From an uncultured Thermoplasmata archaeon (GTDB taxonomy: Archaea; Thermoplasmatota; Penumbrarchaeia; JAEHCK01; CBDVCJ01), in contig CBDVCJ010000001.1 of assembly GCA_965372445.1 (NCBI GenBank), positions 1 through 47,651 of the forward strand: a stretch of 47,651 nucleotides of DNA. The letters run 5' to 3'. The stretch's first letter is position 1, and each line of letters starts with the position of its first letter. The notes under the pieces are model-generated. The model had not been told where the DNA came from and did not search any database. It saw only the letters and a list, made by a program, of their open reading frames with translations. Position numbers and translations under genes: made by a program. This document shows, piece by piece, positions 22,105 through 46,839 of the stretch.

Positions 22105-22169
22105 GTAATCGGAATAATAATAACTGTTTGGAGAATATAAAATTTGTGGTTTGTTACCCTTTTTAAAAA

Positions 22170-22231
22170 GGCGACAGGCGAAAGGCGAAAGGCGAAAGGC
22201 GGGGCCGACAAGCTTTCGTCTATCGTCTTTC
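22170..22231. repeat. (GGCGAMA)x4 heptamer array facing CTTTCGTCTATCGTCTTTC (family C)
   Basis: Heptamer units are at 22170, 22177, 22184 and 22191. The complementary arm is 22213-22231. Its two mismatches are G:T on the + strand. Confidence 0.85.
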
Positions 22232-22262
22232 AAATTAAAACAATTTAACCGCAGATGCCTCA

Positions 22263-23315
22263 TTAATCACATAAATTCAACTTCAACTTCGCCGCGACCC
22301 CAACGGCTTTTGTATATTCGGTCAATTTCAACCGCCTATCTATATCGTCGTGGTCGAACGCGTGCCATTCCGGGTGGTACTGGTCCATAACATTCACACG
22401 CACCCTCGAGGTATCTAAATTTGCCGCGAGCCATTTCAGTATCGGTTCAGAACAGCACTCGATATGGTTCGGCAGTACCAAGTGTCTTACGATCATCTCG
22501 GTTTGCGAATTCGCAAGTTTGTGGTTGCGGCTGACGATCCCCCAATAATTTTTAACATTCGATAATCGCTTGCCGCATTTATTGTTGCCGTATTTAAAAT
22601 CCGTTAAATATACGTCGATCACCCCATCGAGCAACTTCATCGCCTCTTGGGTGAGATACATATTGGAATTCCAGACCTGGGCGATGTTCTTGTTAGCGTA
22701 GGTCAGCACCTCGAGTATGAACGCAAGATTGCTCGTAGGGTCGCCACCGACCCAGTTTGCGTTACGCGCACGTGCGCCAATATCCTTCAACATCCTCGCC
22801 ACGATCCGCGGCGCGATCTCGAGGCCGCCGGTCGGGTTCTGGCTGATGTCCCAGTTCTGACAGAATACGCAATCGAACGTACAGCCGGCAAAGAAAAAAG
22901 TATAGGAAGGCACAAGCTCAGATTCCTCGCCATGATGTAAAAACTCGGATGAGATCCGCGAGTTGCCGACCCCGCAATGCCCTAATTGGTCAGGCCGGGC
23001 AGCTTTGCAGCGACGCTCGCAAAATGTGCACTCACGAAAGATACGGTTTGCGAGCTCGAGCTTAAGGTCCAATAACGAAACCTTTGGCGATCCAACCTCT
23101 TGGGGGTCTGTCTTGTTCTTGAGCTTCAGATCTCCCTTGAATCTATTGTAATATGTCGCCAAAGCCCGGTCATGTTCGCTCCACAGCTCATCAATAGCAG
23201 CATTTAAATCCAATTTGACCGGTAACAATTTAGCTAACCTATATCTTGGTAAAGCCTCACCATTAATGATCGCGTAATATCTGGGCAATGCACGTTTGGC
23301 AGCGTTCTCGAACAT
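22263..23315 (-). CDS. Radical SAM enzyme, PflX-like (putative glycyl-radical/activase family)
   Basis: 350 aa with the CxxxCxxC cluster motif CTFDCVFCQN. The layout resembles COG1313-type proteins. Confidence 0.85.
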   Translation of the reverse strand: MFENAAKRALPRYYAIINGEALPRYRLAKLLPVKLDLNAAIDELWSEHDRALATYYNRFKGDLKLKNKTDPQEVGSPKVSLLDLKLELANRIFRECTFCERRCKAARPDQLGHCGVGNSRISSEFLHHGEESELVPSYTFFFAGCTFDCVFCQNWDISQNPTGGLEIAPRIVARMLKDIGARARNANWVGGDPTSNLAFILEVLTYANKNIAQVWNSNMYLTQEAMKLLDGVIDVYLTDFKYGNNKCGKRLSNVKNYWGIVSRNHKLANSQTEMIVRHLVLPNHIECCSEPILKWLAANLDTSRVRVNVMDQYHPEWHAFDHDDIDRRLKLTEYTKAVGVAAKLKLNLCD

Positions 23316-26549: not shown

Positions 26550-29500
26550 TTATTCCCAATCGACATCCAGAAACTTATGGTTATTAGAGCCTTTTGAATC
26601 CTTTAACTCCGGCTCTTCGTCCTTATCCTTGTCCCAAGCGTCCTTTTCATCTTCTTCTACATCCCAATCCGCATCATCTTCCTCTTCGGCCGCGTCGTCC
26701 ATATCGTAAACCTCTTCTTCTTCCTCATCGTCATCGAGCCATTCGTCCTCATCTTCGTTCTCGTCTTCAGCGTCCATATCATAGACCTCTTCTTCCCCTT
26801 CATCTTCTTCATAGTGGTCTTCGGGCTCTTCTTCATCCAAGTGGCTCTCACGCCACTTAACCTTGTCACGCGGTCTGCGTCCTCTTCCACGACGCGCGCC
26901 AGGCCGGTGCCTGGGGCCTCCTCTGCGTCGAGGCCGATAATCGTCATCCAATTCGCCCATCATTCTCTCGGCTCTTCGGGCCCTGCCGTGGGGCGGTGGG
27001 GGGGGCGGCGGCGCTCGGTGAAGCGGTGGGGGCACAAGTTCACGATGTGCTCTTCGGCGGTTGCGGCGGCTGAGTACTACGCCAATCGCTATCAGGATTA
27101 TTAGAATAATAATGATCAAAACGATCCAAGGTATCACTTCGCTGAAATCGAATTCAGAAGATTCTTCATCGAACCGCACCTTTTGCTCGACCAAGGTCGA
27201 AGCATTGATCTTATCCCTGTGGCTAGCATCTCCTTCTGAATAAATTAAAACCGAGAGATTAAAATAACCAGGATCAAAATCCTCTGGGATGAAGATCCTC
27301 AACGTCTCAGTCCGTTCCTGGCCCGGGGCAAGATCATATTTGTGCTTTAGTGGGAAGTGAATGTTATTTTTCAAGCTCGCTGGGATACCGATAACTTCTC
27401 GATAGATCCCGTCTTGGCCATTGCCTGAATTTTTGATCGTGATGTTATAATGCACTTCTTTATTCGGTGCCGTAGATTTTTCGGCATCCTCCACCTCAAG
27501 CTCAACATCGAAAAGCTGTATCACTGTCACCCTTATGGGTATTGTATCAGTACTTTCATCCCCCAGCAAGGTACCAATGATCTCCATTTCATATTCACCG
27601 GCATTGCCGCTGGCATAGGATGTAACTGTAACTATTTCCTTGATAGAGCTGAACGCATCGACCGTGAAGATCTTGCCCATCTCACCCACAGAGGTTTTCC
27701 AATCTTTTGGAAGGTCGATAATTGATAGATTCACAAGATCAACGTCGTTACCATCATTAACGATCTCAACCTCAAATTTGGCCGAGATGCCAGGGTCGAC
27801 CGTATATTGGGTCACAGCACAGTTGATCTCAAAATCATAGGTGCGTTCTACTATTGCGGTCATGTTGATATCTTCAGTTGAGCCATCGCCATCCAGCGTG
27901 GCGTCGATCGAGATATTGTAACTGCCGGCTAATACATGCTTAGGTGCGATCACAATGAGGTCGACATAAGTATCGTCAAAGGGACCTAATATTATATCTT
28001 CGGTTCGTGTCAACTTGATGTTCCAATTCTGGGGTTTCTTGATAAATCCCAGATCCACGGAATCTACACCATTCCCTTCATTATCGATATATATCCTATG
28101 TTGTACAGTATCCCCGCCCTCTATTGTGAATGTATCAACAAAATAGGTCACGTTAAAGCCAAAATAACGGTCTATTGTAGTTACTGTAACAATTGTGGTC
28201 TTACTGCCGTCGCCCATGAGTTCTACGATGGCCTCTACAAGATAGGTACCTGCAAGTTCATCGTCGGGAATTCCGAGCTCAAGAGTTATGACTTCGCTAT
28301 CATAGGGGTCGATCAGGAAATTATCTTCGTGGCTGAAATCCATTGTCCAGTTCTGTGGAATGTTATTCAAGGTGACTTTAATGATGTCCACACCATTGCC
28401 TGTATGGTTGATCTGAATATTATATTCGACCATATCGCCAGGCTCAACAGTGTATTCTCTATTCTCACAAAAGACCTCGACGCCATAAACACGGTTAACG
28501 GAGCCAGTGATCGCAAGAGTATCATTAAAATGACTAAATGGATCTTGCAATGCGCCTAATGCATTTATTGGGTAACTGCCCTCCAGGGTTTTGTCAGGTA
28601 CAGTAATATTAAGATAAACGACCTTGAATTTATGTGGATCGATAGTGAGATCTTGGATAACCTCATCCTCATACACAAAATTCATCACCCATTCTTCGGG
28701 TGCGGCAGGTGTTGTGAAGTCAATTATGTCGATATCATTACCATGGTTCCACACTACGATATCTACTAATTCATTCTGGCCCGGGTCTAATTTGAAGGTG
28801 TAGCTGGTATCGGCCTTTAAATCGAGCTCGACACCGTAAATACGGTTCACTGTGGTGTGGGTTGTGATTGAAATGGTCTTATCTTTATTCTTCGAGAAAT
28901 AGGCAAACACATCGATCGCGCCAACTGTATATGCAAGTTCATCTGCGGGTACGGTCACATTTAGTGTGATCGTGATATTGGTATCTGGGTCGATCTCGAT
29001 CGTGCTTTGGTTCAGCTCGGCGGTCCAACCGGACGGTGTGTTGCCGACATATAATTTAATTGTGCGGGTCAATTTGCCGTTGTTCGAGAGTGTGACCTCA
29101 TAACTGGTCGATTCACCGGGGTCTATATTACTTGAATTATCTTCACTGGTGAGATTGAAGAACTTGATAGGTAAGCCGCCCACAGATAATGAGGGATCAC
29201 CGAATAGAATGTATTCCACAATGGTTTTATAATCTGCAAAATTCGGTGTGCCGATATTTCTCAGGTAATCCAATTTAGCGGCGTCCAACATCTTACCGGC
29301 AGTAGAAATACCATCATCGTAATTCTTGTACAATCGGACATTGAAATAGCCGGAATATCTGGAAATGTGTGCTGCGCCCCACATACCATATCCAATACGG
29401 GACGCGCCAATACTTGTAATTGCACCGCCATTATAATTCAAAACCACATCTTCGGCGATACAATCATTAGAATCGAACGCGCCAGTGAGACACGCGTCAA

Positions 29501-31058
29501 AATTAAGGAACGGTAATTTATAGCCATTTGTCAACCCCAGCGCATCAGCGCCCGAGAACTTGCCCGCCCAGCTGTCGATATTACCGTGGTCGTGGAAGGT
29601 TGCGAAGCCTGAACCTTTGTTCAGGGTGCTAACAATATCACTTTTGGTACATGTGCCGAGGCTTTGATATAACTTGGTCTGGACAAAATCCGTGAGATAA
29701 TTATCACCGATATAATCTGCTGCGTATTCACCTTCATAAACACCGCTACCTTCATTAAATGTATCTAACCCCACGAGTGTCGCGTTCTCGAACCATATAT
29801 CGGCAGCGGCGTTAAGTTCATAATAGATGATCTTATCAACGAACATCTCCACATCGAAGGTCGTGCTTGCCGGCAGTCGTCCTAAATATACATCCGGGTA
29901 AAGGTCGGCATGATCGATATCCTGGTTGCTATTTGCATTATATTCGCCATAGATCCCATCACCGTCCAGATCCCAATCATCGAAATTCATCTGTGAATCG
30001 TAAAAATCGGCAAAATACAGGTCTGAAGGTACATCGCCGTCGCCCTCACCAATAATAATTGCTTTTCTATATGGCATCTTATCAATGTCACCAACTAATA
30101 TAACATAGGTGATATTCCAATTCTCTTTAGCATTATAGATGAAATATTTTATCTGTTCCTGCTGATCGACACCCTGCTTGGGGAAATATACGCCAGTATC
30201 AATATCTGTAAGGGTAACGATCTTTGCCTCGATCGAGGTGTTCTTTTTATGATCCACCAGCGGTTGAAGTGCATTAACGAACCCAGCAGGTGTAATTATC
30301 AACAGGTCATATTCTACTAATGACTTTGGGTCAGATCTATCCGCATTTCTATTACCATTAACATTGCTAAGATCACTGGGTAATTGATATTTTATCTCGA
30401 AATCGGCTGATCTTAGATGTTCAATAATATCAATTGCAGGCCGATATCGAACTGGGTATATATTGACAGACAGAAACAGCGTGATTTCATCGGTTTCAGG
30501 GTCCAGGCCCATGCCAGTACGATAATCGAACCATTTGCTGGGGTAGAGTTCTGAAGAGCTGTAGATATCCTGGTTTGGTCTGATGAGTCTCAACGGCCCG
30601 TAATCGACGCTTATTTCATCTTCCGGATAATATTCAAGCTGGCTGATCGGGTTTGGGGTCTGAGAGGGTACGACCTTTTTCGTGACTTTCATTGAAGAGG
30701 GTATTTCTGGATAGAAATCTACCGATAATATTTCCGTGCCGGGCTTGAATTTGAATTGCTGGTTATTATACGGCAGCATCGGTTTGCCAAACCCACCATT
30801 TACGAGGCCCGAAGCACCGTCAATATAAATTTTCAGATATTCATCTGCTTCCTGGGTCGTGGGTTCATTAAATGTCATTGCGACTTTCTTCACCATAACC
30901 TCAGGGTTACTATCCAGCTCGGTTGGGCGAGCTTCAAGATTATCTTGAGTGGTGGTCGAAAAATCGGTACTGCCGACCCAAAGGGTTCCACTTGAAGGTA
31001 TTGCAGCTAATGTTAGCGAAATTAAGATAATTAATACTAATATAACTTTTCTCAGCAT
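26550..31058 (-). CDS. Membrane-anchored C25 (gingipain-like) cysteine peptidase with ~7 CARDB/NEW3-like repeats and a long charged tail
   Basis: 1502 aa with a signal peptide. C25-like motifs are LLIITPAGF, YVILVGD, SDLYFADFYD, His motif FHDHGNIDSW and Cys motif FDACLTGAFD. About seven ~105-aa beta-sandwich repeats follow (Y.V...N.GN..D...W). After the TM helix come P7, an Arg-rich stretch and then a D/E-rich tail ending in LDVDWE. Confidence 0.85.
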   Translation of the reverse strand: MLRKVILVLIILISLTLAAIPSSGTLWVGSTDFSTTTQDNLEARPTELDSNPEVMVKKVAMTFNEPTTQEADEYLKIYIDGASGLVNGGFGKPMLPYNNQQFKFKPGTEILSVDFYPEIPSSMKVTKKVVPSQTPNPISQLEYYPEDEISVDYGPLRLIRPNQDIYSSSELYPSKWFDYRTGMGLDPETDEITLFLSVNIYPVRYRPAIDIIEHLRSADFEIKYQLPSDLSNVNGNRNADRSDPKSLVEYDLLIITPAGFVNALQPLVDHKKNTSIEAKIVTLTDIDTGVYFPKQGVDQQEQIKYFIYNAKENWNITYVILVGDIDKMPYRKAIIIGEGDGDVPSDLYFADFYDSQMNFDDWDLDGDGIYGEYNANSNQDIDHADLYPDVYLGRLPASTTFDVEMFVDKIIYYELNAAADIWFENATLVGLDTFNEGSGVYEGEYAADYIGDNYLTDFVQTKLYQSLGTCTKSDIVSTLNKGSGFATFHDHGNIDSWAGKFSGADALGLTNGYKLPFLNFDACLTGAFDSNDCIAEDVVLNYNGGAITSIGASRIGYGMWGAAHISRYSGYFNVRLYKNYDDGISTAGKMLDAAKLDYLRNIGTPNFADYKTIVEYILFGDPSLSVGGLPIKFFNLTSEDNSSNIDPGESTSYEVTLSNNGKLTRTIKLYVGNTPSGWTAELNQSTIEIDPDTNITITLNVTVPADELAYTVGAIDVFAYFSKNKDKTISITTHTTVNRIYGVELDLKADTSYTFKLDPGQNELVDIVVWNHGNDIDIIDFTTPAAPEEWVMNFVYEDEVIQDLTIDPHKFKVVYLNITVPDKTLEGSYPINALGALQDPFSHFNDTLAITGSVNRVYGVEVFCENREYTVEPGDMVEYNIQINHTGNGVDIIKVTLNNIPQNWTMDFSHEDNFLIDPYDSEVITLELGIPDDELAGTYLVEAIVELMGDGSKTTIVTVTTIDRYFGFNVTYFVDTFTIEGGDTVQHRIYIDNEGNGVDSVDLGFIKKPQNWNIKLTRTEDIILGPFDDTYVDLIVIAPKHVLAGSYNISIDATLDGDGSTEDINMTAIVERTYDFEINCAVTQYTVDPGISAKFEVEIVNDGNDVDLVNLSIIDLPKDWKTSVGEMGKIFTVDAFSSIKEIVTVTSYASGNAGEYEMEIIGTLLGDESTDTIPIRVTVIQLFDVELEVEDAEKSTAPNKEVHYNITIKNSGNGQDGIYREVIGIPASLKNNIHFPLKHKYDLAPGQERTETLRIFIPEDFDPGYFNLSVLIYSEGDASHRDKINASTLVEQKVRFDEESSEFDFSEVIPWIVLIIIILIILIAIGVVLSRRNRRRAHRELVPPPLHRAPPPPPPPHGRARRAERMMGELDDDYRPRRRGGPRHRPGARRGRGRRPRDKVKWRESHLDEEEPEDHYEEDEGEEEVYDMDAEDENEDEDEWLDDDEEEEEVYDMDDAAEEEDDADWDVEEDEKDAWDKDKDEEPELKDSKGSNNHKFLDVDWE

Positions 31059-33195: not shown

Positions 33196-33933
33196 ATGCT
33201 TGATCATTTTCTGTACTTGATCCCAGACCCTGAGCATTGGTTGATCTACAGCCCTATTGGCGTCATCGTACTAATTTTAACTGCCTACAGCTCCGGGTTT
33301 TTGAAGCTCAAAGGTTATTTAAAAACAAATTACACACGCAAGCTCTTTCATTTCATAATTTTCACAGTTGCGGGTATCATCGGCATTTTCAGCGGGCTAA
33401 AAGGTGTAATTGTATTTGGCAGTGTCGCCGGGATATTTATTATGGTAACGATCAATTTAGGGATTGGCAATATCTTTTATGAAGGTCTTGCACGAGAACA
33501 GGATTCACCGCACAGGTCATTTTATCTGATCGTACCTTTTGTGGCAACTGCCTGTGGTGGGCTGGTGAATAATCTATTTATCGGTCAATTTGCGGTCATT
33601 GGGTATCTTGTCGTCGGTTGGGGCGACGCCGTCGGCGAGCCTATTGGCGTTAGGTTTGGTAAACACAAATATAAAGTACCGACCGTTGTTAAAGTAGTCT
33701 GCTATCGTTCACTCGAAGGCTCATTTGCGATCTTTATTGTTTCCACTCTAGCAATTTCAATGATTCTGATAAATGTCTTCAAAACCACAATATTAATTGG
33801 CCTATTAATAGGTATAATATCAGGGCTCATTACCTGCATAGTCGAGGCAATATCTCCACATGGTATCGATAACTTTACCACCCAATTCTTTTCCGCTTCT
33901 TCGGCTTATTTTTTTATGAATTATATTTTTTAA
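33196..33933 (+). CDS. CdsA-superfamily membrane protein, polyprenol (dolichol/phytol) kinase-like
   Basis: 245 aa, multi-TM, with motifs YTRKLFHF and GWGDAVGEPIGVRFGKHKY typical of CTP-dependent polyprenol kinases and cytidylyltransferases. Confidence 0.7.
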   Translation: MLDHFLYLIPDPEHWLIYSPIGVIVLILTAYSSGFLKLKGYLKTNYTRKLFHFIIFTVAGIIGIFSGLKGVIVFGSVAGIFIMVTINLGIGNIFYEGLAREQDSPHRSFYLIVPFVATACGGLVNNLFIGQFAVIGYLVVGWGDAVGEPIGVRFGKHKYKVPTVVKVVCYRSLEGSFAIFIVSTLAISMILINVFKTTILIGLLIGIISGLITCIVEAISPHGIDNFTTQFFSASSAYFFMNYIF

Positions 33934-36900
33934 ACGATTGGGTTCTTACATTCCGGACAAATGAACCAACCATCTTTTATAGGGGTGCCACAGTTCGAGC
34001 ATTGTCCTTGTTCATCACCTTCACTCTCTGCTTCAGAACTATCAGCATCGCCCCCAGAATCCTCAGAGCTCTTGACTTTAGGCGAACTCTTGATCTTGGG
34101 CTGCTTTAATTTAGGTGTTTTTGGCGCGACGGGTTCTGATTCCGAAGCGGGCGGTAGTTTCGCCTGTAGCTCATCGCCTATGCCACTGGTTGCCGCCGGC
34201 GGTGGCAAACTTAATTCGGGTTGCGCCTGCTCGACTGGAGCCATCACTGGCTGCTCTGCGGTTGCTTCCATTTCGTAAGCCGGCTGGGTCTGCTGGGCAT
34301 ATTCAGGGCTTTGCTGCATCGACATTTGCATGTATTGTTGCTGATATTGTTGAAATTGGTCGGGCTGCATTTGTGCATATTGCTGCATATATTGTGCAAA
34401 TTGCTCGATCGTGAGCGTTGGATACATTTGTTGATATTGTTGATACATTGCATACTGCTCTGGTGTCAATCCCCCGTATTGCTGGTCGGGTTGCGCGGCA
34501 GCCCCCGCAGGCATCATCATCCCAGGCGCACCAGCCGTCTCAACACCGGCATAAGCGTAACCATATCCACTACTCGCCGCGGCTTGGGCAGCGATCTGTT
34601 CCATTTCAGCCTCTTCCTCGGCCTCTTGCTCCTCACGCCTCTTTTTGAGAAATAAAAATGCAACTACAAATATAATAACCAAAACGATCACGATGCTAAT
34701 AATTATCCATTCAAACGGGAACCCAGCACTTTTATCGCTATCATCACCGCGTTTTGAGGTGTCTGGAGGTATTACTGTTATGGTCTCACTTGTGGAATTA
34801 GATGCACCATACAAATCCACGACCGTTAATGTGACCGTGTATTCACGGCCTTCCTCAAAGGTCCAGAGTACCGTCTCACCTTCTGCGTCTTCATCGTCGG
34901 TACTTCCGTCGTCCGCATCAAAATCCCAATAATAATCAACTGTATCACCGTCCGGATCAACAATATCCAAAGCTTCAAAGGTCCAGGTTAGATTCTCCTT
35001 GGTCTTTCGTGTGTCCGGGTCCGAATCTTTGGTAAATGCATTGAGGTTGGTGCTTGAGACTATGGGCGGGTCATTTTGGTTCTTGACCGAAACATTCACA
35101 ATCAACCAATCAAAAGATTTTAAATTATCTTTTACCGTAATATTTATTGTCGCATAACCAAGCCTGCCATGTTCCGGAGTTGGTGTAAATGTTACATCCA
35201 TTGCAAAAATATTCTCATCCAGATCGGTTTCATCGACATTTTCAGTTAAGCCAAACAATTTATTGTTATCCGTTGAAAATTCGATCTCATCATCCGGGTC
35301 CATTTCTCTTGCTAATATAGTGAAAGTATATTTTTGATGTTCCGTCGCTTCATTTTCATCCTCAAGCACGATCTCGTTAGTATCTTCATCTATCTCCTCG
35401 TCGTAAATTCCTTTCTTAACTTGGAAAATCAATGGTGCATCATTAACATTTTTCACTTCTATGATGATTTTTATTTTGTCAAAATAATTAATTGAATCCG
35501 TTACTCTGACCTCAGCTTCAAAATCACCGACATCCTCATTTGTGGGCTTGAATGAGATATTGGCTTTCGTGGGGTCAATTTTATCCTTTTTCACTGTGAA
35601 TTTCTCCTCGGGTGTAACTTTGAAACCCAATATATCGCCCAAGGGTGTTGACATATCATCATCCTTTGCCACAACTGTAAAATTATAATATTTATCTTGT
35701 TTTACATGATCTGAAAGTTCTACGGTATCTTGACCTGAAGTCACAGTGTCTATTGTGATCCCGTGTACGAACTTTGCAATCACTGGCGCATCATTTGTAT
35801 TGGTGATCTCGAAAATTACATCCACGGTCTTTATATTGTTCTCTGAATAGCCGTCGTCGACCTTAATTTCAACATAATGTATACCCACATCCTCATTTTT
35901 TGGACGGAATGAAATGTAGCCAGTCCCAGAGATAATGTCGAACAGGGTCGTGTTGTCCGAGTAGGTCAATGCATCACGCTCAACCGGGTCGTAGGCTGAG
36001 ACTGTCACGTTAATATATACATCCTCTTTGCCCTTGACCTTACCCGATGTAATATCTGGCGGCGGTATTGAAAACCCAACTTTCCATTCGGTAGTGTCAT
36101 TGATCACTGGGGCGTCATTTACCGAAGAAATTACGACTATGATCGAATGATGTACAAACTCAGACGAGGTATCTGTTGCATTTAGCTGGATCGTGTCTGC
36201 ACCGAATTTATTGGATTTCGGTGTGATCTCCACAGAATCGTTCACCAGGATCTCCGCCGTGATCCAAAGACTGTCATAAGGCTGTACCTCGTTCCAGACG
36301 GTTCCGGTCCAGATACTGAATGTAAGTGTATCACCTACATCCTGGTCGCCGAAAATGCTATTAAGATCGATGTAGCGCGTCGGGTCGTCCTCGTTAAAAT
36401 TAATATTTTCGACTGCACCTGTTTTTATGTGCGGTTTGTAATTTGATATATAGGTCACCTTAATTTTCGGGCGTTCGGAAGCGGTTGTATGGTCCGAAGT
36501 GCGCAAGAATTTAATTGCAGCTGCGCCTCCGGATCCAATAATTAATGCACCGTAATTATCTTTTGTGCCACCGTGCCAATCTGCCGCCAGCTGAGAAATA
36601 TCCCAGGTGTACCAACCCACCCCCGTCACCGAGGTGCTGCCCGACGAAGCGGTATCATGGTCGCCGCCGGGTGTATCCCAGCGTGTAGTACCATCCGTTG
36701 TGTTCCAATTAACACCGCTATCTATGATCGCGCCCGTTGACGTCCCATCACCTTCAATCCAATCTTTGTTAACGCGGTAAATATCCATTGTAAGTGCGTC
36801 TCCTGTAGGTGCATTATGACAATAAATCTCCAGATCGGCTTGTGTGATATCAGCGTCTTGCGGCAAACTTGAAAAGCCGAACTGTATTATGCCTCGGATG

Positions 36901-37997
36901 GGCTGGCTTGAGGAATCCAGGGTAATCCAAAATTCAGGGTCGGCACCGATATTAAACCTTCGCTGATCTTGACCGCTTGTACTTTGACCGGTAATAAGGA
37001 ACGAATCCTTACCATCAAGCGGTCCGGGTTGGATAGTGTCAGTCGTAGGGTCAATAACAACCGGATACTGCCGTTCCGGCGCCACAAGCCACGAGTATGG
37101 CGTTTTTATAGAAAATAATATTCTGTTTTTAATTAACGAATATTGTGCTTGCAAATCGTATTGGCATTCAACAGAATTAAACGAATTGGATTGTTCATAC
37201 GCAACCGGTGCGGGGATCCTGAAAACACCTTCATTATTTTCGTCTCGGAACTCGATCTCCGAGGAGGTCGTTAATGCTTCACCATTTAGAACTAATTCTT
37301 CGTTATCAATATATAATGATAAGCCATCCGAGTATTCGATATATCCATAATAATCAAGTGTAAGTTTATCATTTGACGCATCATATGCTGCCAACTCCTC
37401 CGGGGAATTGGTGAGCAATATGTTGTGTTTCAATTTATTTAATCCGACGACATATTCATCAATGGTATTTGGAAATGCATTCGTAAAGCTAATTTTATTC
37501 TCCTCTATTTCGGCACCAACGTCGTTAACAATCGCACCGAATATCGGGGCGCCATTTGTATCTACAATCGTCATCCCGAGAGGTTCCCATGTTAACCAAT
37601 CATTATCGGCCGCAGTCTTCACGGTCTGGGTTGTCTCCGCGTAATCATTACTGAAATATGCCTTCAGGCCATTCTCCTCACATGCGAAATCGTAATCATT
37701 TGTCGGGTCCTCGTAAGGCCGAATCGTTGTATCTATTTCCTGCCAATTACCTGTATCATCTTTATAATGGACAGGTCCGATATAGATCTCGGCGGTTGTT
37801 GTTCCGTCCGGGTTAGGATAAAATTTTGCATTGCTCGTTCGCATTGATATTTGTTCGAGTTCATTATCATTCAGTTTAATCTTAGTTTCCAGCAAATCTT
37901 TTGGGTTTTCAAAACTCGTAAGTGCATTAACTGTTGGTAATAAAAATGTCAATACTACCAGAATACCCACTAACAATCTAATGTTCGTATTATTCAT
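33930..37997 (-). CDS. Giant single-pass surface protein: DNRLRE-like module, cadherin-like repeats, PKD, TM helix, Q/M-rich tail and zinc ribbon
   Basis: 1355 aa with a signal peptide. One module reads ADLEIYCH...MDIYRVNKDWIEG...VNWNT (tentatively DNRLRE-type). About five repeats end in NDAPV/NDAPL/NDPPI. A PKD-like module reads DPDGDTVDYYWDF...TVTLTVVDLYG. After the TM helix the tail is QQYQQMY...QQYQQQYMQM and ends in CSNC-x12-CPEC. Confidence 0.85.
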   Translation of the reverse strand: MNNTNIRLLVGILVVLTFLLPTVNALTSFENPKDLLETKIKLNDNELEQISMRTSNAKFYPNPDGTTTAEIYIGPVHYKDDTGNWQEIDTTIRPYEDPTNDYDFACEENGLKAYFSNDYAETTQTVKTAADNDWLTWEPLGMTIVDTNGAPIFGAIVNDVGAEIEENKISFTNAFPNTIDEYVVGLNKLKHNILLTNSPEELAAYDASNDKLTLDYYGYIEYSDGLSLYIDNEELVLNGEALTTSSEIEFRDENNEGVFRIPAPVAYEQSNSFNSVECQYDLQAQYSLIKNRILFSIKTPYSWLVAPERQYPVVIDPTTDTIQPGPLDGKDSFLITGQSTSGQDQRRFNIGADPEFWITLDSSSQPIRGIIQFGFSSLPQDADITQADLEIYCHNAPTGDALTMDIYRVNKDWIEGDGTSTGAIIDSGVNWNTTDGTTRWDTPGGDHDTASSGSTSVTGVGWYTWDISQLAADWHGGTKDNYGALIIGSGGAAAIKFLRTSDHTTASERPKIKVTYISNYKPHIKTGAVENINFNEDDPTRYIDLNSIFGDQDVGDTLTFSIWTGTVWNEVQPYDSLWITAEILVNDSVEITPKSNKFGADTIQLNATDTSSEFVHHSIIVVISSVNDAPVINDTTEWKVGFSIPPPDITSGKVKGKEDVYINVTVSAYDPVERDALTYSDNTTLFDIISGTGYISFRPKNEDVGIHYVEIKVDDGYSENNIKTVDVIFEITNTNDAPVIAKFVHGITIDTVTSGQDTVELSDHVKQDKYYNFTVVAKDDDMSTPLGDILGFKVTPEEKFTVKKDKIDPTKANISFKPTNEDVGDFEAEVRVTDSINYFDKIKIIIEVKNVNDAPLIFQVKKGIYDEEIDEDTNEIVLEDENEATEHQKYTFTILAREMDPDDEIEFSTDNNKLFGLTENVDETDLDENIFAMDVTFTPTPEHGRLGYATINITVKDNLKSFDWLIVNVSVKNQNDPPIVSSTNLNAFTKDSDPDTRKTKENLTWTFEALDIVDPDGDTVDYYWDFDADDGSTDDEDAEGETVLWTFEEGREYTVTLTVVDLYGASNSTSETITVIPPDTSKRGDDSDKSAGFPFEWIIISIVIVLVIIFVVAFLFLKKRREEQEAEEEAEMEQIAAQAAASSGYGYAYAGVETAGAPGMMMPAGAAAQPDQQYGGLTPEQYAMYQQYQQMYPTLTIEQFAQYMQQYAQMQPDQFQQYQQQYMQMSMQQSPEYAQQTQPAYEMEATAEQPVMAPVEQAQPELSLPPPAATSGIGDELQAKLPPASESEPVAPKTPKLKQPKIKSSPKVKSSEDSGGDADSSEAESEGDEQGQCSNCGTPIKDGWFICPECKNPIV

Positions 37998-41053: not shown

Positions 41054-41218
41054 AATGAATCACGAGTGGCAAATGGTAATCATTGTTTTTATAATTTCTT
41101 TTTAAAATCCAATGTCGGGGTGCGAATGGCGAATACTATTGAAGAATATTTCCAATATTCAAATACTACCAATACTACCAATGAAATCCCAATGGCAAAA
41201 TTCCAAGACCCAAGCTTT

Positions 41219-41274
41219 AAAAATCCTGAAAGGATTTTTAATGCGAGGTAACTTGGCGTAGCAAGTTACCGCAG
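41219..41274 (-). repeat. Family-A double-hairpin module, copy A3
   Basis: The + strand reads AAAAATCCT-gaa-AGGATTTTT, then AATGCGAG, then GTAACTT-ggcgtagc-AAGTTAC, then CGCAG. Confidence 0.85.
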
Positions 41275-41278
41275 CCGT

Positions 41279-41334
41279 AAAAAAGCCGAAGGGTTTTTTA
41301 GGGCGAGGCAACTTGACGAAGTAAGTTGCCGCAG
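41279..41334 (-). repeat. Family-A double-hairpin module, copy A4
   Basis: The + strand reads AAAAAAGCC-gaa-GGGTTTTTT, then AGGGCGAG, then GCAACTT-gacgaagt-AAGTTGC, then CGCAG. Its hairpin 1 is identical to that of A5. Confidence 0.85.
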
Positions 41335-41494
41335 ATGCAAGTTCCAAACAAATCCCAAAATTCAAGTACCGAAATTCCAAACGACATTAAAATTTGGATT
41401 TTGGTATTTGGTTCTTGGTACTTGCATAATTTGGTACTATTGGAAATATTAATAAAACAAATAAATCAACGCGTTGCCCCACAAACCGTCACAT

Positions 41495-41977: not shown

Positions 41978-42844
41978 TTATGGTATTAGTCTGGCTACAT
42001 TCATATTAAGCTCGAGCCCCAACGCATTCGCCACCGGCGGACATTTGGTCCGCAATAAATACGCGATCGGCCGGTAATCGGTCTCTGAAAACGCTTCGAA
42101 ATTGCCCATGCCTTTGGATATTATCAGATCGACGGACTCGATCTTAGCCTGCAACTCAGGCGTGATCTTCTCGAAATCGACCCCGACAGCATAAGCATTG
42201 GTCGTTAGTACTTCGTCCACTTCAGCTTCTAATCCAAGCTTTTCAACATCTTCCATGGTAGCATCGTTAAGGATTGGCGCGCCTTTGACAATTAGTGTTA
42301 TATACACACCTAGCTTCTTAATCTCTCTGAGCAACAATTTATCGAAAATAATCTCGCCGCAGTTATCCGTGAAAAACAGGATTTTCGCATCCTTTTGGAG
42401 ATATTTTCTGATTTTATCAACATCATCAATATGTAATCCTTCCATACATAATTCATCGAATTTATGATCTAATGCTTCAGGGTTCTCAGCACTGCCTTCG
42501 ATCCCGAAATCGAGCACATTGCCCGCAATTGCACATACCACTGCCGCATGAAGTTTATCCTCGGCTTGTGCTAGGAATTGCTCGGCTTTAGGTAATAATT
42601 TCAGTGCAACGGTGTTGCACCTGGCTTTGATGTCGGTGTAAGGGTCGTTGGTGCCTAGGACTCCAAGCACTCTTTTATGGAGTTTAGTCGATACCTCGAT
42701 CGAGCATTTATCTTCTGAATAATCCTCGGCCAAAACATTACAGGCCTCTCTAATTACGGCTTGGGCTTTGGCATCATCCACGAGCGACGCCTCAAATACC
42801 GCACGCCTTAGCAAGCATGGTACACAATGTGATGTGATCTTCAT
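41978..42844 (-). CDS. DUF89 (ARMT1-like) damage-control phosphatase
   Basis: The N-terminus is MKITSHCVPCLLRR and the metal-site motifs DNCGEIIFD and SKGMGNFE are present. I prefer ATG 42844. The track start 42994 extends into the repeat region. Confidence 0.8.
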   Translation of the reverse strand: MKITSHCVPCLLRRAVFEASLVDDAKAQAVIREACNVLAEDYSEDKCSIEVSTKLHKRVLGVLGTNDPYTDIKARCNTVALKLLPKAEQFLAQAEDKLHAAVVCAIAGNVLDFGIEGSAENPEALDHKFDELCMEGLHIDDVDKIRKYLQKDAKILFFTDNCGEIIFDKLLLREIKKLGVYITLIVKGAPILNDATMEDVEKLGLEAEVDEVLTTNAYAVGVDFEKITPELQAKIESVDLIISKGMGNFEAFSETDYRPIAYLLRTKCPPVANALGLELNMNVARLIP

Positions 42845-42920
42845 TTTGGAACCTCGGAATAATATAAACCAGTGGAAGTGTAATATATCAATATATTTAA
42901 AATATTTTAATTCGTTAAAT

Positions 42921-43223
42921 AGTGGAAAGGGTAGGTTTGGGATGTGGCTTATTAAATTCCAAGAACCAAGAGACAAATTCCAAACAAATCCCAAGGTTCA
43001 AATACCAAGTTCCAAAAAAATCCAAATGTGAAGGCCTAAAGATTAATTAATTGGAATTTTGGAATTGGTACTTGCGGCAACTTACTTCGTCAAGTTGCCT
43101 CGCATTGAAAATCCTTTCAGGATTTCCAAAGTTGGAGCTTGTTTGGCTCTTGGAGGTTTGCTTCTTGGAGTTTTGCATTGCCCACATACCTCATACCACA
43201 CACCACCGCCCCATCTTACCACT
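42921..43223. repeat. ~300-bp nested palindrome enclosing module A5
   Basis: The outer arms are AGTGGAAAGGGTAGGTTTGGGATGTGG (42921-42947) vs CCCACATACC...CCACACACCACCGCCCCATCTTACCACT (43181-43223). The last 28 nt match the reverse complement of 19279-19306 at 26/28. Inner CCAAG/TTCCAAA arrays face TTGGA arrays. Confidence 0.8.
43073..43131 (+). repeat. Family-A double-hairpin module, copy A5
   Basis: GGCAACTT-acttcgtc-AAGTTGCC (43076-43099), then TCGC, then GAAAATCCT-ttc-AGGATTTCC (43107-43127), then AAAG. Confidence 0.85.
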
Positions 43224-43264
43224 GAAAATAATTTAACAATAATGGGGCTTTTAATTAATAAAGA

Positions 43265-44812
43265 TCAGATCTCCATATATTTCTTCTCCGGCCATGCCGG
43301 CCATCCAATATAGTACGCCAACTCTCTCAGGAACTCATTTGCATCATAATACGAGATCTCCCATGATTCTTCATGTTGGTGGTTTTCGATTATATCGCGG
43401 GTGGCCTCGAGCCAGACCGGCATATCCATAGGTACTGCGCCGAACAATAATGAAACCAACAGCCCATTCTCAAACCCCAGTGTCTCTCGCACCTTGGGTG
43501 CAGGTATGGGTTGGGGCTTAAGGTTCGCAGCGTGACTGATGACGCCCGTTGTTATGCCCTCACGCCCGCCGATAAAGTTCAACATCCCCGATAATTTTGG
43601 GAACCACTCGTCAGATACAAAATCGCTGAACTCGTCGAAATATTTACTTCCTTCAGGGTAAACCGGTATGCAGTAGATACTGGTGGCTCTGAACTCGTAA
43701 AGCGCCGAGGAAGATCCTCTGAACGTGAACAGTTCCAAGTTCTCCTCATCACTATTTTTATCTTCCTCAAGCTTCTCCAGCTGTATTACCCCGTCGCGCA
43801 TCTCTTTTAAAACCGTATCCACCTGGCCCACATCCTCGATATTCGGGTCGATCCATAGATGCGGCACAACGAACGGTCTTTCCGGCGACAGGCCGGCCAT
43901 AATATCAGGTATATCTATCGGCCCGAGCGGCCAATTGTCCTGCATCCAGCTCTGCTCTTTCGGGCTCGCTACCACATATTTCAAAAACGGATATAGTGCC
44001 TGGGATAACAACTCAATGGGGAATGGGTTAAGCACTTCTTCACGGATCTCTTTGCGTGCAAAGTCTTTCCAGCATTGTGCAAAGTGGTGGTTGCTCAACG
44101 GAAAGATCGCAATTCTGGAATGCTGGAATTCATATGAATGGTCGGTATCTTCGCGTTTAATAGTTTTATTTAACACAAGTCTGCAATCATGAGGTATTCT
44201 AGTGAAATCACGTTCTGAGATCCTGCGCGCGATCTTTAATAGTTTTCCCATGGTCGGCGCAACGGTCCGCGGCCCCTGTAGTGCAAGCGCCGAGCGTCTG
44301 GGCAAAACCGTGAACAGCCAAAAAACCGTTGAGGCAGGTAGAACATATCCAAGATGTTGTAGAACTTCAGGTGTAAGCCCACCACCGGTACCGCCATCCG
44401 CAGTGTGGATAATAACGACAATTGCCGGCTCGATCTCCGAGATGGGTTTGTAAAGGTTATCAGCCAGATTCTGCACCACCTCCTCATTGAGCACCGCTTT
44501 CGCGGCCCTGCCAGGTCTACCCCCCGCACCTCGAGACATGCCCCGGACGGTGCTGGATAACGAGATCTTTTGGGCTTGCGGGATGTTTTCGAAAAAGCCT
44601 TTGGTGGTCGGATCTGCGCTGGTGTCTACTATGAATGTATATGGTGTATCTGTATTTGCCCGAATGGCTTTGGTTAAACAGCTATATCTATCAAGTTCCT
44701 GGTGGTCAACAATCTTTTCCAAGCCTTCAGATAGTATCCGCGAGCCGCCGCCGCCGATACCGACGATGACGATCGATGGTAGCTTCCTGCCGCCTGACTC
44801 ATCATTAGCCAA
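43265..44812 (-). CDS. Divergent FtsZ/tubulin-superfamily GTPase with a unique ~190-aa C-terminal region
   Basis: 515 aa. VGIGGGGS (aa 17-24) is T1-like. GAGGRPGRAAKA (aa 95-106) is T3-like. HTADGGTGGG (aa 136-145) is the T4 signature. IFPLSNHHF (aa 235-243) is T6-like. GPIDIPDIMAG (aa 297-307) is T7-like. The order and spacing parallel the canonical FtsZ in this window. Confidence 0.8.
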   Translation of the reverse strand: MANDESGGRKLPSIVIVGIGGGGSRILSEGLEKIVDHQELDRYSCLTKAIRANTDTPYTFIVDTSADPTTKGFFENIPQAQKISLSSTVRGMSRGAGGRPGRAAKAVLNEEVVQNLADNLYKPISEIEPAIVVIIHTADGGTGGGLTPEVLQHLGYVLPASTVFWLFTVLPRRSALALQGPRTVAPTMGKLLKIARRISERDFTRIPHDCRLVLNKTIKREDTDHSYEFQHSRIAIFPLSNHHFAQCWKDFARKEIREEVLNPFPIELLSQALYPFLKYVVASPKEQSWMQDNWPLGPIDIPDIMAGLSPERPFVVPHLWIDPNIEDVGQVDTVLKEMRDGVIQLEKLEEDKNSDEENLELFTFRGSSSALYEFRATSIYCIPVYPEGSKYFDEFSDFVSDEWFPKLSGMLNFIGGREGITTGVISHAANLKPQPIPAPKVRETLGFENGLLVSLLFGAVPMDMPVWLEATRDIIENHQHEESWEISYYDANEFLRELAYYIGWPAWPEKKYMEI

Positions 44813-44888
44813 TAATCTCCCCCATATGCAGTTCTAAGGAAATCATAATCAGATATATCTAACTTTTGATTGAATAGTTCTTAAAATA

Positions 44889-45022
44889 GGTTACGAAGTT
44901 CGGTTATGGTTAGGAAGCCGGTTTGGAAGTTAGTGTTAAGGTTAGGATTTGTCCTTATTTGATCCAACTTCATAACCCCAAGACCAAACTCGCCTCCTAA
45001 CCTTAACCAAATGTCCAACTTC
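44889..45022. repeat. 134-bp palindrome (family E: GGTTAGGA/GAAGTT arrays)
   Basis: The left arm is 44889-44947 and the right arm 44963-45022. Shared blocks are GAAGTT, GGTTA, GGTTAGGA, GTTTGG and GTTAGGA. GTTAGGAAGCCGGT is also present at 31443-31456. Confidence 0.85.
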
Positions 45023-45033
45023 TGTTGGAATTC

Positions 45034-46839
45034 TTAGTAATTTCTGGGTGGGTTTTGCTGCTGGGGCGGTGGATAGTAAGGTTGCTGTGGCGGTTGCTGT
45101 GGCGACGGATAATAGGGTTGCTGTGGTTGCTGCTGCTGTGGCGGTGGATAGTAGGGTTGTTGTGGCTGTTGCGGTTGCGGCGGGTAATCCTGTGGCGGTG
45201 GTGGCGTCGGCTGGGTTGGCGGTTGCTGTGGTTGCGGCATTCGATCGCCTGGCGCCTGGTATTGCGTACCACCAGGTGCGCCCGGTGGGGGTTGCTGCCA
45301 TTGTCGTTTGCGGCTGCGCTTGCGCGCCCAGATCCCCAAAATACATATCACAATAACAATAATCGCGATCGTTAAAATTAGGAATGCCATATCTAATCCC
45401 GAAGCATCTTCACCATCACTGCTTTTCTTGGACGAGGCTTTGTAATCTTCATAATCCGCTTTGATCGTGTCGCGGGTCACTTCATTAAAGGTCTTCACCT
45501 CACTATATGTCTGGGGCTCCAGTTCATCTTCCTCCTCACCATTAGAAAAGGGGTCTTCAGAGTCCGAGCCCGGAAGCTCGACCGATATGAAATTCCCATT
45601 CTTGAAAGAATACCAATTTTCAGATCTTGCCATCGTATCTATCGCATTGGGTTGGTCCCCGGCCCCAAGATCTTCGGTACCAATAATCGAGGGGTCTTCA
45701 ATATCCATCTCTACATAGGAACCAGGGCTCCAATAATTGTTCAGGGCGTTATCGGAATATTCGTCTTCCCAATACCAATCATATTGCGGTCCGATCTTAT
45801 ATGCAGTTATTTCTGTATTATCGGGTAATATTTTGGTATCTTGCTCGATATTACGGAATGAATATTCGACCCATTCAGGCCCGATCGTCACGGGAAAGTT
45901 CAACCCCTCACCCAAAGTGATATCGCCTTTCTCGGTCTCAGGCGCGCTTTCCGGCATATCGATCATCATATCATATGAAATTGTGCCTGAAAATTCATTC
46001 AAAATGATCGTCATTTGAGAACTGGCGTCCCAAGATTCGTAATCCTTGATCGGAAAATCAAAAATATCCAAAGGCGGGTTATAAATAATATCATAAGACG
46101 CTTTCCAATCGGTTATAGTTTGTTTCAGGGTAAAGTACATCCTCACCTCGTCTGAAGTGCCAGGGTCGGTTGGCTGCTCCTCATTCGGCACCTCCTCGCC
46201 ACCTCTTACATCACCTTCGAAAAGATCTTCAAAGAAATAGCCACTGTAGGTTATATCGTACAGAAAATCCACATCCGAATTCAGCACGAAATCGAAGCTG
46301 CCTTTTGCAATTGCAAGTTCGTCAACAGTGAAATAGATATGACCTGTCAGTGCCAGATCGAACCACATATAACCCTCGATCTTATAATCCATCCGCATAT
46401 CCTCTAACATTTCAGATATATCATCTTCAGATTGACGAGTTCCGTACTGTTCCATCATACTCGCGAAATCCATGCTCATTACAATATCCATCTGGGCAGC
46501 CATCGCAATATATTCTTCATAATATACATCATAACAAATATATTCAGTTTGACCGACCGTGACCTTCGTATTATCATCTTGAACCGTCAATGCACGATAA
46601 TAGCCCATGTTGCCTGAAACCACCATTTTGGATACGTCAAAATATTCGGTTTCCATATCATCGAAAAATCCATCTTGAGTAAGTTCATCCTCGTAGCCCA
46701 TACACCACTGGTCGCCAATCTCCCAGATCGGTACATCGTTCTCTTCTGGTACTACTATTATTCCTTGTACACTTGCACCTGCTAGCATGAAAAATGCTAA
46801 TGCTATACAAATCACATATATTGACCTCATCTTCATCAC
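45034..46839 (-). CDS. Single-pass surface protein with P/Q/Y-rich cytoplasmic tail
   Basis: 601 aa with a signal peptide, an ~480-aa acidic ectodomain with no recognised domain, and a TM helix FLILTIAIIVIVICILGIWA followed by RKRSRKR. The tail has three QQPYYPPPQQ-type repeats. Confidence 0.75.
   Translation of the reverse strand: MMKMRSIYVICIALAFFMLAGASVQGIIVVPEENDVPIWEIGDQWCMGYEDELTQDGFFDDMETEYFDVSKMVVSGNMGYYRALTVQDDNTKVTVGQTEYICYDVYYEEYIAMAAQMDIVMSMDFASMMEQYGTRQSEDDISEMLEDMRMDYKIEGYMWFDLALTGHIYFTVDELAIAKGSFDFVLNSDVDFLYDITYSGYFFEDLFEGDVRGGEEVPNEEQPTDPGTSDEVRMYFTLKQTITDWKASYDIIYNPPLDIFDFPIKDYESWDASSQMTIILNEFSGTISYDMMIDMPESAPETEKGDITLGEGLNFPVTIGPEWVEYSFRNIEQDTKILPDNTEITAYKIGPQYDWYWEDEYSDNALNNYWSPGSYVEMDIEDPSIIGTEDLGAGDQPNAIDTMARSENWYSFKNGNFISVELPGSDSEDPFSNGEEEDELEPQTYSEVKTFNEVTRDTIKADYEDYKASSKKSSDGEDASGLDMAFLILTIAIIVIVICILGIWARKRSRKRQWQQPPPGAPGGTQYQAPGDRMPQPQQPPTQPTPPPPQDYPPQPQQPQQPYYPPPQQQQPQQPYYPSPQQPPQQPYYPPPQQQNPPRNY

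Follow-up and report, generated by a model that had tools for sequence, protein, structure and literature searches.

A divergent, probably filament-forming branch of the tubulin/FtsZ superfamily in an uncultured lineage of Thermoplasmatota

The 47,651-nucleotide (nt) stretch of DNA analyzed here (the window; contig CBDVCJ010000001.1 of assembly GCA_965372445.1, from an uncultured Thermoplasmata archaeon) carries, at positions 43265 to 44812 of its minus strand, a gene for a 515-amino-acid (aa) protein that we propose, with a probability of roughly 60%, to be a filament-forming GTPase representing a new chromosomal housekeeping family of the tubulin/FtsZ superfamily, confined to one uncultured lineage of Thermoplasmatota. 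The original prediction, made from the letters of the window, had read it as a second, highly diverged protein of this superfamily, and the Pfam Tubulin profile, the AlphaFold model with its Foldseek matches, the viral structure collection BFVD, and an exhaustive profile search all bear this out.

By sequence the protein belongs to the superfamily barely, whereas its predicted structure places it there clearly. The Pfam profile Tubulin (PF00091) matches residues 13 to 164 with an E value of 2.9e-7 and with 31.4 bits, short of the gathering score of 33; thus, the profile check suggested at the outset recovered Tubulin, although under its cutoff, and gave no match to FtsZ_C at E≤1. A precomputed PF00091 match is present on most of the 82 homologue clusters described below. 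Searches of Protein Data Bank (PDB) sequences with the protein or its family returned only E values of 0.015 to 0.05 around the T4 loop (Asgard tubulin B, TubZ, gamma-tubulin). The AlphaFold2 model, built from 43 homologues, reached a mean predicted local distance difference test score (pLDDT) of 80.5 and a predicted template-modeling score (pTM) of 0.88; the full-length model shows the two-domain tubulin/FtsZ fold and matches tubulins along the whole chain. Foldseek against the PDB gave 699 matches at E≤0.001, and tubulins (beta, gamma, BtubA, and Asgard AtubA) take all of the first 50 places, with E values of 1e-11 to 1e-10, template-modeling scores of 0.56 to 0.67 by the target, 522 to 567 aligned columns, and 10 to 14% identity. 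The structure search that the original prediction had proposed therefore put tubulins on top at E values of ~1e-11. In BFVD, 10 proteins matched at E≤0.001, and all the named ones are phage FtsZ, tubulin, or PhuZ. Altogether, the Pfam E value of 2.9e-7, the invariant motif residues, and the Foldseek E values of ~1e-11 argue that the motifs are beyond chance.

The five motifs quoted in the original prediction (T1, T3, T4, T6, and T7) were located by retranslation in the canonical order, and T2 and H7 are present as well. The parts of the gene are as follows, together with the canonical FtsZ of the window to which they are compared (invariance refers to an alignment of 43 family sequences).

43265..44812, minus strand: complete gene for the 515-aa tubulin-superfamily protein, TTG start, TGA stop (open reading frame [ORF] list)
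44069..44779, minus strand: N-terminal GTP-binding (Rossmann-like) domain, residues 12-248, strands S1-S6 (Pfam Tubulin over residues 13-164; DSSP of the model)
44741..44764, minus strand: T1 loop VGIGGGGS, residues 17-24; G18, G20-G23, and S24 invariant
44609..44629, minus strand: T2-like loop VDTSADP, residues 62-68; D63, T64, S65, D67, and P68 invariant
44495..44530, minus strand: T3 loop GAGGRPGRAAKA, residues 95-106; G95, A96, G97, G98, P100, G101, R102, and A103 invariant
44378..44407, minus strand: T4 signature loop HTADGGTGGG, residues 136-145; residues invariant (translation)
44081..44107, minus strand: S6/T6 IFPLSNHHF with conserved Asn241, residues 236-244; S240 and N241 invariant in the family and in three distant relatives
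43937..44035, minus strand: core helix H7 region VLNPFPIELLSQALYPFLKY..., residues 260-292; model helices 264-272, 274-281, and 284-292
43892..43924, minus strand: T7 loop/H8 GPIDIPDIMAG with the acidic pair D300 and D303, residues 297-307; D300 and D303 invariant in the family
43268..43891, minus strand: C-terminal half, residues 308-515, a mixed alpha/beta domain followed by terminal helices
8235-9416, minus strand: canonical archaeal FtsZ (Tubulin 159.6 bits, FtsZ_C 109.6 bits, GGGTGTG, NLDFAD)

The protein has a predicted mass of 57.9 kDa and a pI of 5.2, and an identical 515-aa gene call (P0001) is present in a public protein collection. Its TTG start lies at 44812-44810, with a Shine-Dalgarno-like run, GGGGGAG, at 44817-44823, 4 nt before it. 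VDTSADP probably corresponds to T2, given its position after S2. Residues of T1, T2, T3, T4, T6, H7, and T7 are invariant across the 43 family sequences; in the T3 loop, the G, A, and P are also retained in the three distant relatives, as is N262 of H7, itself invariant in the family. The T7 loop and the NLDFAD motif of the window FtsZ have an identical D-x-x-D spacing. By DSSP of the model, the GTPase domain carries two family-specific inserts, one in the H1-S2 loop (residues 36 to 58) and one in the segment from H5 to S6 (residues 200 to 232).

The family is isolated in sequence space. A HMMER profile search of 1.84 billion representative proteins gave 15 matches at E≤0.001, made up of one 50%-identity cluster and fragments, which represent the family itself, and of three distant proteins of full length, P0089 (3e-15), P0091 (8e-13), and P0093 (3e-7); none of these matches was an FtsZ, CetZ, tubulin, or FtsZl protein. 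The three relatives are ~490 to 515 aa long and score 48 to 55 bits with Pfam Tubulin, above its cutoff. Among 5.8 billion clusters, P0089 and P0091 each stand alone, and homologue searches with a trimmed P0089 and with the alignment broadened by the three relatives gave back only their own query, which marks the relatives as singletons. By hhalign, the family matches all three with a probability of 98 to 99%, and P0089 aligns over 440 columns, so that the C-terminal half is common to both. The core residues (G, G, G, GA..P, GGTG, SN, N, and D) are invariant in the relatives too, where T7 reads LDPSD, LDPND, or IDPSE, i.e., [LI]DP[SN][DE], with an invariant first Asp and an Asp or Glu second. 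A mini-profile built from the three does not discriminate between FtsZ and beta-tubulin, matching each with a probability of 94 to 95%. We compared two profiles with PDB sequences, A1 (the family's own) and A2 (the family plus P0089, P0091, and P0093). The best matches of A2 were CetZ 3zid (2e-8), CetZ1 4b46 (1.5e-7), and Asgard AtubA (3e-7), followed by gamma, Btub, and beta tubulins at ~1e-5, and FtsZ is missing from its best 60 sequences. These scores, together with the fold, argue that the family is a very derived offshoot of a rare branch nearer to CetZ/tubulin than to FtsZ; the exhaustive profile search and the structure matches thus uphold the "new lineage" that the original prediction had offered as one option.

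A word-index search retrieved 82 clusters of "hypothetical proteins" with 50 to 89% identity to the window protein, and the few named sources among them are Thermoplasmata or Thermoplasmatota metagenome-assembled genomes (MAGs). Full-length members are 500 to 545 aa, with a few longer ones (one of 582 aa) or fragments. In a scan of one genome per GTDB species, we found 34 family loci, all in MAGs, which are labeled Thermoplasmatota, Thermoplasmata, Thermoplasmatales, Methanomassiliicoccales, Methanobacteriota, or uncultured archaeon. One member, P0006 (80% identical to the target), is WP_455392307.1, filed under "[Eubacterium] cellulosolvens"; since all other labeled sources are Thermoplasmatota-type archaeal MAGs, it looks like a misbinned archaeal contig in a bacterial assembly.

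Conservation spans the whole length of the protein, with ~120 invariant columns in the 43-sequence alignment, and the ratio of nonsynonymous to synonymous substitution rates (dN/dS) is 0.02 to 0.16 between the closest family pairs; the family is under strong purifying selection. It is also chromosomal. Around the gene lie ordinary archaeal housekeeping genes, which vary between sublineages and include those for ribosomal proteins, eIF2-alpha, eIF1A, RIO1, V-ATPase, gyrase, and tRNA synthetases such as AspRS. The family has no tblastn match in 50,697 phage records or 72,556 plasmids, none in IMG/VR, and none in PADLOC, and we therefore rejected a defense or mobile origin. The gene is apparently single copy: the two loci found in one MAG (L019/L039) are apparently two pieces of a single gene, lying on contigs whose overlap is close to the assembly k-mer length.

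The likeliest competing explanation is a fast-evolving FtsZ paralogue, that is, a third FtsZ acting in the division ring with the FtsZ at 8235-9416. The two proteins share the superfamily, the fold of the GTPase domain, a glycine-rich T1, and the T7 spacing; the family aligns to the window FtsZ by hhalign over the GTPase domain (E value of 6.8e-4, although with a probability of 27%), and archaea often encode two or more FtsZ-type proteins (PMC9871819). Nevertheless, we consider this unlikely. The protein scores 12 bits with NCBIfam ftsZ (TIGR00065) against a cutoff of 295.2, FtsZ_C gives no match on its C-terminal half even at E≤10, and BLASTP finds no alignment to the window FtsZ at E≤10. The family has no conserved C-terminal peptide such as that tethering FtsZ to SepF/FtsA, as its tails vary after the GWxxW motif, and its strong purifying selection differs from present fast evolution. 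Moreover, the A2 profile finds CetZ and tubulins rather than FtsZ, and tubulins fill the top 50 of Foldseek. Hence, FtsZ membership was rejected on TIGR00065, FtsZ_C, and the C-terminal peptide. Membership in CetZ was rejected as well: the A1 profile does not list CetZ, the exhaustive search returns none, and it takes the broadened A2 profile to reach 3zid and 4b46, over the GTPase domain only. The original prediction was thus right that the protein is too diverged for FtsZ1, FtsZ2, or CetZ. CetZ is nonetheless one of the closest counterparts in sequence and setting, being an archaeal and chromosomal member of the superfamily that coexists with a canonical FtsZ and giving the best PDB sequence matches of A2; P0091 alone matches 3zid at 7e-4. 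A cytoskeletal filament that serves outside division would be the likely role by analogy. In contrast, CetZ is ~360 to 395 aa long and the target 515 aa, with its two GTPase-domain inserts and a larger, sequence-orphan C-terminal half, and the two belong to different phyla; the main text of the CetZ survey makes no mention of Thermoplasmata (PMC9856176). Tubulins proper (eukaryotic alpha/beta/gamma, BtubA/B, Asgard AtubA/B, and Odin tubulin) are the best whole-chain structural matches, with a similar size, an H1-S2 loop insert, a similar element order including the helices after S10, and GTPase-domain matches to A2 at about 1e-5 to 3e-7. The identity of 10 to 14% in the structural alignments, an hhalign probability of 1% against the verified human TUBB (beta-tubulin), and a T1 of GGGGS instead of the GQCGNQ of tubulins set the family apart; Tubulin_C matches neither the target nor the C-terminal halves, and the family alignment has no conserved acidic tail of the tubulin kind. 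On Tubulin_C, T1, and the TUBB comparison, identity with tubulins proper was rejected.

An FtsZl1- or FtsZl2-type protein remodeling membranes with the P/Q-tailed membrane protein encoded 221 nt upstream, close to another option of the original prediction, appears highly improbable to us. FtsZl1 is ~1000 aa long, with a coiled coil and a helical C-terminal domain, without a recognizable T6-H7 or an FtsZ-like C-terminal domain, and sits in a vWA/GTPase/OmpA operon (PMC2875224). Its likeness to the target is limited to the T1-T4 part of the GTPase domain: Pfam Tubulin_2 (PF13809) gives 9.1 bits against a cutoff of 27, and the target is a 515-aa globular protein with T6-H7-T7, no coiled coil, and no vWA/GTPase/OmpA neighbors. 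FtsZl1 was therefore rejected, and the label "FtsZl1-like" considered for the target is not supported. FtsZl2 (e.g., PFL_1302), a proteobacterial protein of ~700 aa encoded by a stand-alone gene (Makarova and Koonin 2010), called for a direct comparison. With four FtsZl2 sequences rebuilt from Additional file 2 of these authors, hhalign of the family gave a probability of 84% and an E value of 8e-6 over 192 columns, in the GTPase domain only. Both genes stand alone, T1, T4, T6, H7, and T7 are all present, the C-terminal region is long and mixed alpha/beta in both, and small shared motifs occur (PS[IV] before S1, KI.LS, and AK.[IV]LN). However, FtsZl2 is absent from the matches of the exhaustive search and shows no affinity to the distant relatives: FtsZl2 against P0089/P0091/P0093 gave ~27, no better than the 26.7 of FtsZl2 against FtsZ, and the three relatives match FtsZ/tubulin (62 to 64) better than FtsZl2 (41.5). 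The match is weak, N-terminal only, and not shared by the family's relatives, which makes FtsZl2 membership unlikely, and we read the resemblance as superfamily level only, no stronger than would be expected for any two branches. A DNA-segregation or mobile-element tubulin of the TubZ/PhuZ kind, since fixed in the chromosome, has a very slim chance. It could draw on phage c-st TubZ, the best single-family PDB sequence match of A1 (E value of 0.045, T4 only), on TubZ among the marginal structural matches of the C-terminal half, and on the setting of P0091, a cluster of large orphan genes with an rve integrase nearby on a variant contig. Against this stand the lack of any match in the phage, plasmid, and IMG/VR collections, the housekeeping flanks that differ by lineage, and the lack of a TubR-like small DNA-binding gene or any conserved neighbor, on which context a TubZ/PhuZ identity was rejected; conservation that is strong and uniform in at least 30 species is what a cellular gene passed on vertically would typically show. 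Finally, the protein could be a tubulin-fold GTPase that no longer polymerizes, a monomeric or dimeric regulator or scaffold whose C-terminal half serves another function. The sizeable inserts, the lost Asn of the NxDxxD motif, and a C-terminal half with no sequence match or significant structural match would fit, and yet we find this very unlikely. Throughout the T7 pair and the entire WPLGPIDIPDIMAGL.PERP segment there is little or no variation, which is hard to explain unless the T7 surface works in trans, the pTM of 0.88 describes a compact tubulin-like two-domain body, and, to our knowledge, every tested superfamily member that retains T7 polymerizes.

The C-terminal half (residues 308 to 515, ~208 aa) is an orphan in sequence. 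Pfam recognized nothing in it in the 17 members searched, even at E≤10, and sequence profiles never align it to FtsZ, tubulin, or FtsZl2, the hhalign alignments to all three being confined to the N-terminal GTP-binding domain. Its conservation nonetheless equals that of the GTPase domain (mean column identity of 66%), and it is closed by a conserved Y-[IML]-G-W-x-x-W motif, beyond which the tails differ in both length and sequence. In the full-length model, the elements run S7 (314-321), H9 (330-340), an inserted hairpin, S8 (378-386), H10 (395-410), S9 and S10 (to residue 457), and then three short helices before the long last helix (488-502); this order would follow the tubulin succession S7-H9-S8-H10-S9-S10-H11-H12. 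Folded alone, the half had no Foldseek match at E≤0.001, and its marginal matches were HypE and PurM-like proteins (best 3e-3) and TubZ, CetZ, FtsZ, and tubulin (E values of 0.02 to 0.1). The assignment as an activation domain thus draws on the full-length alignment (root mean square deviation of 6 to 8 Å) and on element order, and we regard the C-terminal half as a candidate, although not a secure one, for a heavily rebuilt activation domain whose predicted fold is weakly like that of tubulin. The original prediction had described an unrelated C-terminal region of ~190 aa; it is in fact ~208 aa long and does lack sequence matches, but the weakly tubulin-like fold makes "unrelated" doubtful at the level of structure. 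We also rejected a membrane-targeting C terminus, as the conserved Y.GW..W looks like the end of the fold, the tails vary, and the protein has no transmembrane segment, its Kyte-Doolittle maximum of 1.62 falling on a predicted buried strand.

We propose a model in which GTP would be bound by the N-terminal domain and subunits would assemble head to tail into protofilaments, the T7 loop (D300/D303) of one subunit completing the GTPase site of the next. Because this site would be completed in trans, hydrolysis would follow assembly, and the polymer would be dynamic; given the single gene, it would be a homopolymer, if the protein polymerizes. The C-terminal half (~210 residues) would carry the T7-side contact surface and probably also lineage-specific lateral or partner contacts. 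The T1-T6 pocket, N262 of H7, the T7 pair, and the segment W-P-[LM]-G-P-[IV]-D-[IL]-P-D-I-M-A-G-x-x-x-x-R-P are conserved in full. Taken together with the compact two-domain model, this conservation speaks for subunits that assemble head to tail in a GTP-dependent manner and whose T7 activates hydrolysis in trans. The retained T7 acidic pair, from which the original prediction had suggested a polymerization-activated GTPase, is invariant in the family and D plus D/E in the relatives, which fits such hydrolysis. By analogy with CetZ, the role may be that of a housekeeping cytoskeleton beside the canonical FtsZ, e.g., in cell shape, in envelope organization, or as an accessory in division. Purifying selection, the apparent single copy, the chromosomal context, and the coexisting FtsZ all point to such a CetZ-like role and away from a division-ring FtsZ, a plasmid or phage segregation motor, or a defense component.

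Several points weigh against a filament-forming housekeeping GTPase. The PF00091 score is slightly under the gathering threshold, and the protein has Pro where the FtsZ motif NxDxxD has N. Folded alone (pLDDT of 71), the C-terminal half resembles no solved structure significantly, the best being HypE at 3e-3. The placement nearer to CetZ/tubulin reflects profile scores and not a phylogeny, the assembly and GTPase mechanism is predicted by homology only, and the single copy derives from one MAG. In addition, neither a membrane anchor nor a conserved C-terminal peptide nor a partner gene was found in the family alignment and the neighborhoods, which makes the cellular role a guess.

The partner question was addressed by clustering all ORFs of at least 80 aa within ~6 to 8 kb of the gene at ~36 loci. 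In the window, the gene is preceded by the following features.

44813..45033, minus strand: upstream intergenic region, 221 nt, with the ribosome-binding site (RBS) GGGGGAG at 44817-44823 and A/T-rich TATA-like boxes
45034-46839, minus strand: membrane protein, 601 aa, with a signal peptide, a large acidic external domain, one late transmembrane segment, and a P/Q-rich tail

The sequence of the 601-aa protein agrees with the single-pass membrane protein and P/Q-rich tail of the original prediction: the tail is cytoplasmic, ~90 aa long, with PQQP/YYPPPQQ repeats. The protein has no real Pfam match. Its proposed partnership with the tubulin-like protein, on the other hand, found no support. Only the gene itself and its shadow ORFs form widely shared clusters, the best neighbor cluster comprising 9 loci of one subgroup; no homologue of the membrane protein lies near the gene at any of the ~36 other loci, and an ARMT1-like gene adjoins it at none of them. 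The neighborhood comparison proposed at the outset thus revealed nothing conserved beyond close relatives, and both the P/Q-rich membrane protein and ARMT1 were rejected as operon partners. Moreover, the spacer contains TATA-like boxes (ATATAT at 44853-44858 and TATTTTAA at 44881-44888), which are putative promoter elements and suggest that the gene forms its own transcription unit, separate from the membrane-protein gene.

Some other features of the window and of related loci deserve mention. The window FtsZ has an N-terminal extension of ~60 aa. Just downstream of the tubulin-like gene, two inverted-repeat arms (41215-41348 and 43058-43131; ~60 to 130 nt, 81 to 86% complementary) enclose small ORFs and the ARMT1-like gene (41978-42994). 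The window contains exactly two copies of a 34-nt core, where 0 are expected; two hairpins are present in each arm, and RNA folding of 43050-43250 (minus strand) gave a z score of -3.05. The arms have no Rfam match and no copy in the 44 other loci; they could be an element like a miniature inverted-repeat transposable element or a structured terminator or noncoding RNA. The window also encodes a set of large proteins.

19525-22263, 26550-31058, 33930-37997, and 1856-5611, all minus strand: large predicted surface/secreted proteins

They comprise a 1502-aa peptidase C25 (gingipain-like), a 1355-aa PKD/CBM96/disaggregatase-repeat protein, a 1251-aa He_PIG Ig-domain protein, and a 912-aa protein without a Pfam match. 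In two distant family members, a RIO1 kinase and KH (PNO1-like) pair lies downstream of the tubulin-like gene, directly after eIF-1A in L003 and ~5 kb away in L001; as the pair does not recur in the clustering of the other loci, it is probably a coincidence of conserved archaeal gene order. Among the distant relatives, P0091 belongs to a tight codirectional cluster of large proteins with overlapping or abutting ends (L041, 2802-14339, and L042), of 1277, 503 (tubulin-like), 430, 549, 194, and 893 aa, with no Pfam or PADLOC match and, on the variant contig, the adjoining rve integrase; this may be an unknown multiprotein system built around a tubulin-like GTPase.

A description of the family was not found in full-text literature searches, in the superfamily surveys of Santana-Molina 2023 and of Brown and Duggin 2023, in Makarova and Koonin 2010, or in the 2026 Asgard tubulin paper, and it could sit unremarked among the unclassified sequences of such survey data sets. 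Apparently undescribed as a family, it belongs to a known superfamily and has a rebuilt C-terminal half; it is not a new kind of molecule. The surprise is tempered by the weak Tubulin domain already flagged in databases on most members.

The tubulin/FtsZ superfamily is central to ideas on the origin of cell division and of the eukaryotic cytoskeleton, and each of its new branches (CetZ, TubZ/PhuZ, Odin and Asgard tubulins) has brought a new polymer form or role. The family is unusual in being conserved like a core gene (dN/dS of <0.16), yet a profile search of 1.84 billion proteins reaches no FtsZ or tubulin from it; half of the protein is, moreover, a sequence orphan. It provides an added data point on the CetZ/tubulin side outside Asgard archaea and a defined candidate for an unknown cytoskeletal system in a widespread, uncultured archaeal phylum. 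A more far-reaching hypothesis, possible in our opinion but tentative, is that of a third, ancient archaeal cytoskeleton of the tubulin superfamily in this lineage, besides FtsZ and CetZ/tubulin, a homopolymer combining a canonical GTPase domain with a rebuilt activation domain in a new polymer architecture and serving a lineage-specific role. If so, it might shape or organize cells that may lack a rigid wall, and the three rare relatives, including the one that lies in a cluster of large orphan genes, would be what is left of a broader branch on the CetZ/tubulin side that has hardly been sampled.

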